Of a stretch of DNA of 64,000 bases, positions 44,627-50,143 are shown one piece after another. Position numbers and translations under genes: made by a program. Location of the stretch: the IMG/VR virus record IMGVR_UViG_3300011423_000008, positions 7,760 through 71,759 of that record; one strand, written 5' to 3'. The notes under the pieces were generated by a model, which was not told where the DNA came from, made no database searches, and worked only from the letters and a program-made list of their open reading frames with translations. How positions within the stretch are numbered: position 1 is the first letter of the stretch; every line of letters starts with the position of its first letter. Source of the DNA: a virus. Its lineage: Duplodnaviria; Caudoviricetes.

Positions 44627-44704
44627 TGGTCGCTCGCATAAGACTTCTACCTTATAATCTTCGCCCGCTCATGGGCGATGTTCTAGATTTTAAACTATCG
44701 AGCG
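44627..44704 (-). ncRNA. tRNA-like RNA with non-decoding 6-nt loop and encoded CCA
   Basis: CGCTCG/CGAGCG + ACCA; TCGCCC-ATGAGC-GGGCGA. Confidence 0.65.
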
Positions 44705-44714
44705 CACTAAAGTT

Positions 44715-45044
44715 TTAATTAATTGTTAAACCAGTCGGCGGCGACGGTCTTTTTAAAATTTCTTCGTAACGAAAATAATATTCATTAGTTAAATTTACCG
44801 CCCCGTTTGGTTCTCCGTTTTCCAAGGATTTAATTACTATATAATATTTACCCGGATGTTGTACTTGAAACATTAATTCTTGTTCTGTAATCCAAGGTTC
44901 CAATGGTCTGCTCCATGCAACCCAAACCCATTGTTCATTATAAACTTTTATGTCATAAATCGTAACAGTTGGAGTTTCAAATGGGAGCCAAACTAAAACC
45001 GGATTGCTAAAAAATAGCAAAACACTAATAATTATAAGTTTCAT
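44715..45044 (-). CDS. secreted beta-sandwich protein
   Basis: Signal-like N-terminus; PGKYYIVI...PSPPTGLTIN (FnIII-like). Confidence 0.55.
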   Translation of the reverse strand: MKLIIISVLLFFSNPVLVWLPFETPTVTIYDIKVYNEQWVWVAWSRPLEPWITEQELMFQVQHPGKYYIVIKSLENGEPNGAVNLTNEYYFRYEEILKRPSPPTGLTIN

Positions 45045-45454
45045 CGACTAATAAAAAAACAAGTAATATGATATTCCCATTTAGGAAATGGAGTTAAACC
45101 TAATTCTTGGCGAATTTCTTTAAGTCGTTCGCATCGAATTGGAAGCCAATAATATTCATCGTTAGTTTTGATTACATTCGAATATTCAAAATTAATCTTG
45201 GCCCCTTGACGAAACGCCCAATATGGAGATTTTCGTACGTCACTAACTTTACCATTAACTATGGTAACATGCGCCCCATGCATAGGCATAGAACCATTTT
45301 TCCAAGTTAGTTTTCTTACCCAATTTGCATAATATCGCACAATAGAATTAGGAGTGTCTAAAACAACCCAACCACTATTCGGGCAATAGCGCAAAGTGCC
45401 TACTGCATTATACCATTTCAATTTACCTTTCTTCGGGATATGCGAGACTCGCAC
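45041..45454 (-). CDS. 2H phosphoesterase-family protein
   Basis: Two HxT motifs: AHVTIV and YHITCF. Confidence 0.7.
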   Translation of the reverse strand: MRVSHIPKKGKLKWYNAVGTLRYCPNSGWVVLDTPNSIVRYYANWVRKLTWKNGSMPMHGAHVTIVNGKVSDVRKSPYWAFRQGAKINFEYSNVIKTNDEYYWLPIRCERLKEIRQELGLTPFPKWEYHITCFFISR

Positions 45455-45505
45455 TCGCTACGAAGCATAGACAGTGCTCCATGATAACTCATTCAACAAT
45501 ACCCC
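45434..45505 (-). tRNA. trnD: tRNA-Asp(GTC)
   Basis: Cloverleaf, G73; loop CT-GTC-TA. Confidence 0.85.
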
Positions 45506-45510
45506 ATTAA

Positions 45511-45726
45511 TTAATATTCTTTCAAAACAATCTTATCGCCGCCGTTTACTTGGTTTTTTGTGCCGTCTTTTAATAACACAGCTTCGCCCACGCTTCGTTG
45601 TTCCTCGATATCGTCACAATAACAATATTCTTCGCAACGACATGCGATCCTACATCTGTATTGAAAATCAACATCTAAATCTTTATCAAACTCTAATAGT
45701 TTTTGAATTAATTCTTTTACTTTCAT
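45511..45726 (-). CDS. hypothetical protein
   Basis: MKVKELIQKLLEFDKDLDV start. Confidence 0.65.
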   Translation of the reverse strand: MKVKELIQKLLEFDKDLDVDFQYRCRIACRCEEYCYCDDIEEQRSVGEAVLLKDGTKNQVNGGDKIVLKEY

Positions 45727-46079
45727 TTTAATTCTTTCTTAAATAATGCTTCCGTTATTTCAGAAAATTTGCCTTCTTCTTTTAATCTTTTGAAATTAAT
45801 TTGTCGTTCGTGATTAGAAATTGACTCTATAATAAAATCTTTCAAAGCCTCACATTTATTATAAATTACTATTTCTTCCTCGGTTAAATAATCTTCTACT
45901 CTGGTTTTATATTCGTCAAATTCTTTTTGGTCTTTAATACATTCGTCACAGCCGCCGCAACCACAAGACCCGTTATTACAAATAGGACAAATAATATAAG
46001 CGGCTCGGCACAAATGGCACCAATTTATTAAATATTTATCTTTCCATTTATCAAGAAATAATTTAGCCGCTTCATTCAT
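45723..46079 (-). CDS. Cys-rich hypothetical protein
   Basis: CHLC...CPICNNGSCGCGGCDEC. Confidence 0.65.
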   Translation of the reverse strand: MNEAAKLFLDKWKDKYLINWCHLCRAAYIICPICNNGSCGCGGCDECIKDQKEFDEYKTRVEDYLTEEEIVIYNKCEALKDFIIESISNHERQINFKRLKEEGKFSEITEALFKKELK

Positions 46080-46084
46080 AATTT

Positions 46085-46159
46085 TGGTAGCCTATACGAG
46101 ACTCGCACTCGTTTCTTCGACTTGAAAGGCCGACGATTTAACTCATAATCTAATAGGCC
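46085..46159 (-). tRNA. trnE: tRNA-Glu(TTC)
   Basis: Cloverleaf, encoded CCA; loop CT-TTC-AA. Confidence 0.9.
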
Positions 46160-46163
46160 GATA

Positions 46164-46364
46164 TTATTTTTTCTTCTTTTTAACGGGGTTTAATTTTCCC
46201 GTAATTCGGACAGGAACCCCTACTATTTTCAAATCAACGGTCGCCAATCCATCTAGTTCTATTTCCCATTTGATGGCAACAACATGATTGATGGCTTCTC
46301 CCGTTACTTTGTCTTTAACATGAGTTCCGATTGACGTTCCGTTACTTACAATTTCAATGTCCAT
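46164..46364 (-). CDS. hypothetical protein
   Basis: IVSNGTSIGTHVKD motif. Confidence 0.6.
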   Translation of the reverse strand: MDIEIVSNGTSIGTHVKDKVTGEAINHVVAIKWEIELDGLATVDLKIVGVPVRITGKLNPVKKKKK

Positions 46365-46365
46365 A

Positions 46366-46617
46366 TTATTTATCTGATTTAGATATTTTTTTATTCTTCA
46401 CTTCCCTTGGTAAACGTAAAATTTTAAGAAATCCCGGTTCTGGATAAACCGAAACGCTAAAATATTTATTTTCAGGAATTTTAAATTCGCTCCGAATCCA
46501 TGTATCGTCAAGTGGATTTTTAAGATAACGCTCCATTTGTTCGGGCGTTAACTTATCTTGTTCTGGTTTAGTCTCCTTAATGAGATTCGTATTTATCCCC
46601 GATTTTGACACTTTCAT
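46366..46617 (-). CDS. hypothetical protein
   Basis: Tiling ORF. Confidence 0.55.
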   Translation of the reverse strand: MKVSKSGINTNLIKETKPEQDKLTPEQMERYLKNPLDDTWIRSEFKIPENKYFSVSVYPEPGFLKILRLPREVKNKKISKSDK

Positions 46618-46825
46618 ATTCTTCTTTGGTTACTACAATATTTTGATTTTTATCTAGTGTCAACCAATAAGCTTCGGGAATTTTAGTTTCAATGCGCTCG
46701 CCGTTAATATAACGAACCAAAACTCGCGGCGGATCATATTGTTTATTTGTTATAACTCCGTTGCCGGAATTAGAACAGCCTAACAACAAAACACATAAAA
46801 TACAAACAGATATTAGTTTTTGCAT
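46577..46825 (-). CDS. small lipoprotein
   Basis: LLLGC lipobox. Confidence 0.6.
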   Translation of the reverse strand: MQKLISVCILCVLLLGCSNSGNGVITNKQYDPPRVLVRYINGERIETKIPEAYWLTLDKNQNIVVTKEEYESVKIGDKYESH

Positions 46826-47229
46826 TCGATTAAAAAGGTTGATTCTTGATTTGTTTGATAAAAATTTAATCCATTTAAAGAGTTATAATTCATTTTGTTG
46901 TCTTTAATGATAATCTTCGGCAAATCGCCGCCCGTCCAATTATGAATATCGGTCCATTCTTTTTTACCTAAATGGAAGGCAATAGGCTCGTAACCAAGCC
47001 GCCGACATAACGCAATACCTTCATTCAAAATAGCAAATCCAAAAGCTTCGTCTTTGTGGGTTTCTTTATAATTAAAAGGAATTAATGTATTTTTAAACAA
47101 ACTATTAAAAAAATTATCATTAAAAGATTTATAAGTATCTTCGATGAAATTTTCTGCTCCTTTGGCAAGTTTTTCTTTATACGCCGCCGCCATTTCTACC
47201 ATTTGCATTAATCTATAATCTCCGCTCAT
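46813..47229 (-). CDS. hypothetical protein
   Basis: Tiling ORF. Confidence 0.55.
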   Translation of the reverse strand: MSGDYRLMQMVEMAAAYKEKLAKGAENFIEDTYKSFNDNFFNSLFKNTLIPFNYKETHKDEAFGFAILNEGIALCRRLGYEPIAFHLGKKEWTDIHNWTGGDLPKIIIKDNKMNYNSLNGLNFYQTNQESTFLIECKN

Positions 47230-47232
47230 AAT

Positions 47233-49421: not shown

Positions 49422-49438
49422 AATATATTATATAGAAG

Positions 49439-49445
49439 ATTACAC
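49439..49445 (-). promoter_or_regulatory. putative late promoter motif
   Basis: GTGTAAT. Confidence 0.55.
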
Positions 49446-49463
49446 TAATTTTGATAATTAATT

Positions 49464-49534
49464 TGGTTCGTACCGGTTCTGCCCCGATGAGAAAGCCTTA
49501 TCAAGACTCCATTATACTATTTAATTAACGAACC
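49464..49534 (-). tRNA. trnI: tRNA-Ile(GAT)
   Basis: Cloverleaf; loop TT-GAT-AA. Confidence 0.85.
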
Positions 49535-49539
49535 ATTAT

Positions 49540-49625
49540 TAGCGGAGATTGGAGTTTCACCAAACATAGTCCACCTAAGGGCATGGGTTATGAGCCCATC
49601 TAGCGTCATCCGGCTTGTCCCCGCA
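49540..49625 (-). tRNA. trnfM: initiator-type tRNA-fMet(CAT) with long variable arm
   Basis: GGG/CCC anticodon stem, T1-T72 mismatch, loop CT-CAT-AA, about 18-nt V region. Confidence 0.8.
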
Positions 49626-49627
49626 TT

Positions 49628-49700
49628 CCTTGTATATTGGCTTTGCACCAATGATTTCGGCATTTACGTGCCGACAGTTTTACTTTTAAACTAATACAAG
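49628..49700 (-). ncRNA. tRNA-like RNA with 6-nt anticodon loop
   Basis: CTTGTAT/ATACAAG; intact D and T arms; TCGGCA-CGTAAA-TGCCGA. Confidence 0.75.
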
Positions 49701-49705
49701 ATTGA

Positions 49706-49849
49706 TTATTTAATGAATTTAGACCTAAAATCAGAAATAAATTTATTGTCTCTTTCTTTTGCAATGTTTTCAGCCATTTTTTCGATAATTTTATCTAGCT
49801 CTTTTTTAGACTTCCATTGTTTATATATTTTAAGTATTTTAAGAAACAT
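49706..49849 (-). CDS. small hypothetical protein
   Basis: Internal ATG that avoids the tRNA-Asn overlap. Confidence 0.45.
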   Translation of the reverse strand: MFLKILKIYKQWKSKKELDKIIEKMAENIAKERDNKFISDFRSKFIK

Positions 49850-49852
49850 AAT

Positions 49853-49943
49853 CTGGGCAGAATGGGTTCGAACCATTATACGGTATGGAGGCCGGATGCA
49901 CGATATTAACAGTATCGCCACTTACCAATTAGTGTACCGCCCA
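49853..49943 (-). tRNA. trnN: tRNA-Asn(GTT) with long variable arm
   Basis: CGATA-CTGTTAA-TATCG; G73; 23-nt V region; canonical D and T loops. Confidence 0.85.
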
Positions 49944-49954
49944 ATGAAATTAAA

Positions 49955-50037
49955 TAGCAACAAGTCGATTTCACGTAATGTTCCCTAAAAGTTAGGACTA
50001 CGTTTGTCCGCTTTCAAGTCTATGATTGCATGTTGCT
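49955..50037 (-). ncRNA. stem-closed tRNA-sized RNA of unclear fold
   Basis: AGCAACA/TGTTGCT + A; internal ACGTA/TACGT and CCTAA/TTAGG stems. Confidence 0.35.
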
Positions 50038-50071
50038 CTATATTAGAGGATTTCACGTTTAATTGCGCCGT

Positions 50072-50143
50072 TCAATACGAATGGATTTGCACCAGTACCT
50101 ACCCCCTTCAACGGGGGTCGCTCTACTATTAAGCTACTAATTA
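50072..50143 (-). pseudogene. degenerate tRNA-like gene with 6-nt loop
   Basis: Good D arm; ACCCCC-GTTGAA-GGGGGT; T loop TGCAAAT; poorly paired acceptor. Confidence 0.55.

Follow-up and report, generated by a model that had tools for sequence, protein, structure and literature searches.

The tRNA array of an uncultured huge phage was analysed in a 64,000-nt stretch of the IMG/VR record IMGVR_UViG_3300011423_000008 (positions 7,760 to 71,759), which is called the window here. Two elements on the minus strand of this array, B (49628-49700) and C (50072-50143), are members of the tRNA family by covariance score, but they fail the defining feature of the anticodon loop. B is a real and unique outlier among the cloverleafs of its clade, and the C slot holds a conserved tRNA-like domain in a longer conserved RNA. 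A third element, A (44627-44704), and two oversized tRNA-like RNAs fall outside the geometric class of B and C. These points are new here and are regarded as solid. In a literature search, no description of anticodon arms with a 6-bp stem and a 6-nt loop was found for phage tRNA arrays.

Anticodon arms of elements B and C

A preliminary description of the window had listed hairpins with 6-nt loops in A, B, C and the two oversized RNAs and, from this five-fold recurrence, had proposed a designed class of RNAs that do not decode. All of the quoted stem-loop-stem strings are present at their positions; those of the array elements lie on the minus strand and that of the RNA starting at 18974 on the plus strand. 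The arms with 6 bp and 6 nt are real 18-nt arms in A (UCGCCC-AUGAGC-GGGCGA), B (UCGGCA-CGUAAA-UGCCGA) and C (ACCCCC-GUUGAA-GGGGGU). In these three elements, no alternative register yields a paired stem with a 7-nt loop, and the Y32-U33-NNN-R37 frame with a 5-bp stem and a 7-nt loop is absent. The proposed class itself is not supported, because the two hairpins of the oversized RNAs differ in geometry or position, A fits no tRNA model, and B is a lone outlier seen in this phage only. A, B, C and the oversized RNAs have no common geometry.

Sequencing or assembly indels were ruled out as the cause of the odd loops. The same phage is present in the NCBI assembly GCA_902730175.1 as a 213-kb contig (L004) and also as a Logan contig (L005). 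Over 20,249 nt, only three differences separate the 213-kb contig from the window (42950, 42967, and 42979), none of them an indel or inside the odd elements, and the Logan contig is identical to the window. Because these two further assemblies agree without indels and are identical at all elements, the odd loops are not sequencing errors.

Close relatives were not found in GenBank phages and IMG/VR by array megablast, terminase tblastn, and terminase locus search. Relatives were reached solely via portal protein homologues in a large protein collection, which led to syntenic contigs. The portal identity to the window is 73% in L006, 68% in L007 with its extension L036, and 60% in L008. Contigs L031 and L033-L035 are more distant relatives. 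Counterparts of A, B, and C were not found in L008, L031, and L033-L035.

Element B is an intact class-I cloverleaf without encoded CCA. The preliminary description had called it otherwise intact, and this was borne out by the acceptor (7/7), D stem (4/4) and T stem (5/5), with all 22 stem positions of the element paired and no mismatch. Its D loop (AAAAGUA) and T loop (UGCAAAG) match the type that is usual in the array. The Rfam tRNA score of B is 35.9 bits, above the gathering threshold of 29 bits. The covariance model aligns its anticodon arm as a 5-bp stem with an 8-nt loop, of which the end bases, A and U, are pairable; this pair lengthens the stem to 6 bp and shortens the loop to 6 nt. 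Minimum-energy folding likewise gives a cloverleaf with this shorter loop (z = -3.7). B is placed 3 nt upstream of an initiator-like tRNA, i.e., with normal tRNA spacing, in tandem with this tRNA and tRNA-Ile.

The uniqueness of B was found by a strict cloverleaf scan, for which acceptor 7/7, T stem 5/5, and fully paired D and anticodon stems were required. In the genome of the window, 11 matches were obtained, all in the array, and 10 of them have a 7-nt loop with B as the sole exception. The scan of four related phages gave 34 matches, all with 7-nt loops (34/34). B is the only exception to the 7-nt loop among the 45 strict cloverleafs of the clade. In a separate scan of cloverleaf-like contexts around arms with 6 bp and 6 nt, none of 40 block-shuffled genomes matched the quality of B. 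No homologue of B was found in profile searches, in an exact-arm scan of IMG/VR, or by comparison with 103 tRNA calls. In L007, tRNA-Asn and the initiator-like tRNA have nothing in the slot of B between them, and L006 has unrelated sequence there. The initiator-like tRNA (49541-49624, minus strand) has a CAT anticodon, three G-C pairs beside the loop, and an 18-nt variable region.

Element C also exceeds the Rfam gathering threshold, with 32.4 bits, and is aligned by the covariance model as a 5-bp stem with an 8-nt loop as well. When C is folded alone, the structure is weak (z = -1.4). Counterparts were identified in the same slot between tRNA-Pro and tRNA-Asn, scoring 29.6 bits in L006 and 24.6 bits in L007. 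The loop is 6 nt (AUUUCG) in L006 and 8 nt (CAUAUUAA) in L007, and neither is the canonical 7-nt loop. The loop sequences of the three versions contain no common anticodon. According to the preliminary description, homologues with normal 7-nt loops would speak against its reading. Such homologues were searched for, and none was seen for C, while A and B have no homologue at all. The core of C is 54-60% identical across the three phages, and RNAalifold detected two-sided changes that preserve pairs in the D, anticodon, and T stems. The acceptor is paired at 5/7 positions in the window, 5/7 in L006, and 4/7 in L007, compared with 7/7 in every strict tRNA. C and both of its homologues have no CCA, and the conserved sequence runs on at the 3' side.

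The elbow of C follows a rule of the whole clade. The elbow was surveyed in the window (39041-52500, minus strand), L006, L036, L008, and L031. The D loop is without GG in 41/45 strict tRNAs, usually with AGU or AGA instead. The T loop is of NGC type, i.e., UGC, AGC, CGC, or GGC with G at position 55, in 38 of the 41 strict tRNAs without GG, and it is UUC or AUC in three of the four with GG. In C, the D loop without GG is combined with a UGC T loop in the window, and GG is combined with UUC in L006 and L007. The two loops change together as the clade-wide rule predicts, and the elbow of C is therefore maintained.

On both sides of C, the flanks are conserved. The 5' flank (50144-50155, minus strand) is invariant and comprised of TTAGAGATAGA plus one base. 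The 3' flank (49945-50071, minus strand) is conserved up to the start of tRNA-Asn. It contains two GTGAAATC boxes (50049-50056 and 49967-49974), an invariant block, AGAGCAACATGCAATC, a variable hairpin, and a closing helix, AGCAACA/UGUUGCU. The blocks identical in all three phages are TTAGAGATAGAT upstream, and GTGAAATCCTCTAA, AGAGCAACATGCAATC, CGTGAAATCGA, and TGTTGC downstream. The phages that share these invariant flanks have portal proteins with 68-73% identity. Consensus folds and single-sequence folds of the region gave two domains. In the first, UUAGAG of the 5' flank is predicted to pair with CUCUAA (50043-50048), by which the tRNA-like domain is enclosed. The second contains the variable hairpin and is closed by AGCAACA/UGUUGCU. 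From these sequences, C looks like part of a conserved RNA of about 205 nt, in which it forms a tRNA-like domain, and not like a free tRNA mimic. The long-range helices are proposed and unproven, since they come from three sequences with invariant flanks.

Other roles and occurrences of the flanks were also searched. GTGAAATC and TTAGAGATAGA were considered as recurrent promoter motifs and rejected, as the window contains no further copies of them. Near B and C, the minus strand showed neither a sigma-70-like promoter nor a terminator. The invariant 16-mer beside C matched only an unrelated terminase coding sequence in IMG/VR, and the composite pattern of the C flanks gave nothing in JGI metagenome contigs.

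Element A, the oversized RNAs, and neighboring genes

Element A is a four-way fold on the minus strand. Its minimum-energy fold is a cloverleaf (z = -3.2), and the acceptor is paired at 6/7 positions and followed by encoded ACCA. The encoded CCA and the arm with 6 bp and 6 nt, both reported in the preliminary description, were confirmed. The arm at the T position is 18 nt long and has no T-loop motif. Rfam gave no match to A even when 201 nt were searched at E <= 10, and lowering the threshold of ARAGORN did not produce a call either. No homologue was found by profile searches, the exact-arm scan of IMG/VR, and the 103 tRNA calls, i.e., A is phage-specific among the genomes compared. A lies directly before a tRNA-Gln-like gene. 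A and a neighboring ORF of 109 aa are absent from L006, and in L036 a homologous ORF of 111 aa is followed directly by an ordinary tRNA-Gln without A. A is the weakest case and may be only a structured by-product ending in CCA.

The neighboring tRNA-Gln(UUG)-like gene (44551-44619, minus strand) has the loop CTTTGAA and the T loop GGCAGTA, and neither Rfam nor ARAGORN detected it. The 3' strand of its acceptor, AGGAGG, doubles as the Shine-Dalgarno sequence of the ORF starting at 44542. The gene is kept in L006, and an ordinary tRNA-Gln is found in its place in L036. Another four-way fold that ends in CCA and lacks a T loop was located at 49009-49105 on the minus strand, between the RNA starting at 48845 and tRNA-Tyr. 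By BLAST, it has no counterpart in L006 or L007.

The two oversized tRNA-like RNAs have hairpins of different kinds. The RNA at 48845-49000 (minus strand, 156 nt) contains the hairpin ACGGGC-GUUAUA-GCUCGU with a 6-nt loop, but this hairpin adjoins the T arm, i.e., it is at the position of a variable arm. The homologous hairpin in L007 is CCCC-GUGA-GGGG, with a GUGA tetraloop. The RNA at 18974-19154 (plus strand, 181 nt) contains a 16-nt hairpin, ACGGA-GUGACU-UCCGU, at the anticodon-arm position. Two readings of this hairpin are possible, a 5-bp stem that closes a 6-nt loop or a 6-bp stem that closes a 4-nt loop. Folding of the full 181-nt RNA is strong (z = -5.9).

The window comes from a viral contig of 71.7 kb, and its genes include those of the terminase, the portal protein, and an ERCC4-type nuclease. 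The tRNA array extends over approximately 39.0-52.5 kb of the window on the minus strand. ARAGORN at default settings predicted 12 tRNAs in the array; several extra ones were predicted by Rfam and further ones by hand reading. At a low threshold, ARAGORN reported further loops of 6 or 8 nt at 44130, 47765, and 50675, with anticodons of two or four bases. These were rejected as misfolds. In hand reading, the loops of these minus-strand genes have 7 nt, i.e., CTTCTAA in Arg-UCU (44130-44211), CTTAAAA in Leu-UAA (47765-47846), and CTCAAAA in Leu-CAA (50675-50757). Their architecture is unusual, with the D arm missing or a region of 26-28 nt before the anticodon arm, and without a long variable arm. 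The unusual layout of Arg-UCU is also kept in L006 and L008.

The arrays of the relatives are syntenic, but their turnover is fast and the gene content differs strongly. HNH endonuclease genes, small ORFs, and swapped tRNA genes form the context of this turnover. The tRNAs at matching slots are 46-96% identical across these phages. In L008, a TnpB-like gene (2983-4086; OrfB_IS605 / Cas12f1-like_TNB) was found within the tRNA array, directly after tRNA-Pro.

Possible explanations: decoding, decay, and non-decoding functions

The explanation favored here, for which the chances are about even, is that the elements are tRNA-shaped RNAs of separate origin from the minus-strand tRNA operon. Most probably none of them would decode, and they would be processed and stabilized like tRNAs, with C as a handle. 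B and C retain the upper half and the elbow of the real tRNAs of the array. The acceptor/T-arm stack and the elbow are the parts that RNase P, RNase Z, and the CCA-adding enzyme read. These are also the conserved parts of the elements, and the anticodon loop is the one that is free to vary. Because these parts are kept, the RNAs may be excised and stabilized by RNase P, RNase Z, and CCA addition. With this shape, they may also occupy proteins that recognize tRNA by its form. At 18 nt, the anticodon arm is one nucleotide longer than the usual 17 nt. Pairing of its end bases leaves 6 nt in the loop, which lacks the Y32-U33-NNN-R37-A38 pattern. Because the arm closes in this way without a U-turn frame, the RNAs would be kept off the decoding path. 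For C, the working unit would be larger, i.e., a two-domain RNA of about 205 nt between tRNA-Pro and tRNA-Asn, in which the flanks are fixed and the core drifts yet keeps its fold. The tRNA-like domain most likely serves the conserved flanking RNA as a handle for folding, processing, or stability. B may stand on its own as a mimic of the kind seen in this domain. Of the non-decoding class in the preliminary description, the non-decoding part is the better reading for C, given the lack of a common anticodon and of a canonical 7-nt loop, the degenerate acceptors, and the invariant flanks, although the five RNAs are not one class.

Several observations weigh against this explanation. The proposed flank helices show almost no covariation, since the flanks are invariant, and the conservation of the flanks could act on DNA, i.e., a promoter or an operator, rather than on RNA. 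Only three sequences of C exist. The drift of the C core is not distinctive, as real tRNAs at matching slots are just 46-96% identical as well; a faster drift of the core had been considered as an argument and was dropped for this reason. Selection on A and B is not measurable because they have no homologues. Since C33 is present in otherwise ordinary tRNAs of the relatives, a missing U33 counts for less here than in other groups. Finally, the loops of A and the C family have a layout known from a decoding tRNA, which is discussed below.

It is unlikely, though least so for B, that the elements are working decoders with 8-nt anticodon loops, reading either triplets or quadruplets. Among known RNAs, sufD and SufB2 are +1 frameshift suppressor tRNAs with 8-nt anticodon loops, i.e., the model for quadruplets. 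The model for triplets is the yeast mitochondrial tRNA-Thr1, a decoding tRNA with the 8-nt anticodon loop UUUUAGGU in a 3+3+2 layout (PMC3113583). The elements share with these tRNAs an extra base in the anticodon arm. The Rfam alignment, in which both B and C have an 8-nt loop on a 5-bp stem, and the perfect acceptor of B agree with such decoding. Read as 8 nt, the loops of the C family and A begin with C-R-U-NNN, which is the 3+3+2 layout of the yeast loop (PMC3113583). B can be read as A-C-GUA-A-A plus one extra U, and A-C is found at 32-33 in a normal tRNA-Gly of L006. However, the known 8-nt loops are open, with a good acceptor and a fixed anticodon, whereas here the loop ends are Watson-Crick partners in A, B, C of the window, and its L006 counterpart. 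Because of this pairing, the closed 6-nt loop is the favored fold. The supposed anticodon differs among the three C versions (UGA, AUU, and UUC), the acceptors of C are degenerate, and B has G or C instead of U before any candidate anticodon. An open 8-nt loop with a preceding U, a following purine, and an anticodon conserved among orthologues was not found. Canonical Tyr, Ser(UGA), Glu, and Leu(UAA) tRNAs are already present in the array.

Decaying tRNA genes or recombination scars are a rather unlikely explanation, in which A and B would be young relics without function, each with a one-base change in the length of the anticodon arm. Both are confined to this phage, in arrays whose gene content varies strongly between relatives. 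The loss of A with its 109-aa neighbor in L006, the direct passage from the ORF to tRNA-Gln in L036, and the empty or unrelated B slots in L007 and L006 are consistent with relics, and so are the aberrant T arm of A and its failure in every tRNA model. The four mismatch-free stems are the sole argument against decay of B. The canonical loop closest to that of B is CUGUAAA of tRNA-Tyr, and it would have to undergo several changes, not one indel, to become the loop of B. An origin of A, B, or C as a recent duplicate of another tRNA was rejected, since no close paralogue was found among the 103 tRNA calls. For C, decay is opposed by the fold and the non-7-nt loop, which are kept in three lineages despite 54-60% identity.

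As the preliminary description inferred, the elements might also lure away tRNA-targeting nucleases or toxins of the host as decoys or sponges, which is a special case of the non-decoding explanation and quite unlikely. This sponge function and the other roles named there, RelA/T-box modulators and amino-acid donors, are neither favored nor disfavored by the sequences. As context, phage tRNA arrays have been linked to anticodon-nuclease conflicts (PMC7824862), and a borderline 2H phosphoesterase is encoded in the array. A GU start is found in four of the five loops, like the GUN anticodons of Tyr, Asn, and His, but it is missing in A and in both C homologues (AUUUCG and AUAUUA). Moreover, known anticodon nucleases would lack their recognition loop in an arm that closes to 6 nt, and no defence or counter-defence partner was identified. 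The borderline phosphoesterase is a 137-aa protein (45041-45454, minus strand) with a 2H-SAK score of 26.2 bits against a cut-off of 27, and it is kept in L006 and L008. It could be related to RNA-end healing.

The non-decoding explanation was also compared with known systems. With the canonical elongator tRNA (RF00005), B and C share the score, the cloverleaf, the D and T arms of array type, and the tandem tRNA spacing. They differ from it in the 18-nt arm instead of 17 nt, the 6-nt loop without the U33/R37 frame, the lack of CCA, and, in C, the 5/7 acceptor, and A is not matched by this family. The stable RNAs species 1 and 2 of phage T4 (rnaC and rnaD) are co-transcribed and processed with the T4 tRNA cluster, and they have tRNA-like ends and an unknown function. 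By this description, the likeness is that of small non-tRNA RNAs in a phage tRNA operon, but C is a full cloverleaf domain in a longer RNA. The bacterial and phage YrlA Y RNAs and the MALAT1 mascRNA are tRNA-shaped modules used for processing or protein binding, not for decoding. C resembles them in its tRNA-shaped domain with a probably non-functional anticodon arm and differs in that its closing helix leaves the acceptor end. A Y-RNA reading was rejected, as Rfam gave no match to the Y RNA or mascRNA families and a TROVE/Rsr gene (PF05731) is absent from the 71.7-kb contig. Some phage tRNAs, as in T5, have altered anticodon loops by which they escape host nucleases. The likeness is that of array genes whose loop changes could avoid cleavage, but those tRNAs decode, with 7-nt loops and intact anticodons. 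With the 8-nt-loop tRNAs, the T4 stable RNAs, and the YrlA and mascRNA modules, the elements share a resemblance, and membership in none of them is supported.

Implications for phage tRNA operons

Phage tRNA arrays are usually understood to aid codon usage or to supply spares against anticodon nucleases. In this array, working tRNAs are accompanied by intact tRNA-shaped genes that are unable to present a normal anticodon, and one of these genes is the conserved domain of a longer RNA in three phages. There is also a meaning for annotation, as standard tRNA finders miss real tRNAs of this clade and misreport loop sizes.

A wider proposal, which is put forward as speculative and rather improbable, is that the tRNA operons of these huge phages produce a set of tRNA-shaped RNAs that have sealed arms and do not decode. 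This set would include the RNA of about 205 nt and would act on host or phage proteins that recognize the tRNA shape. Such RNAs would, for example, titrate tRNA-directed immune nucleases or toxins, or steer tRNA-processing enzymes. If the RNAs are made and stable, phage tRNA operons would also yield structural or regulatory RNAs which exploit the tRNA-processing and tRNA-binding machinery.

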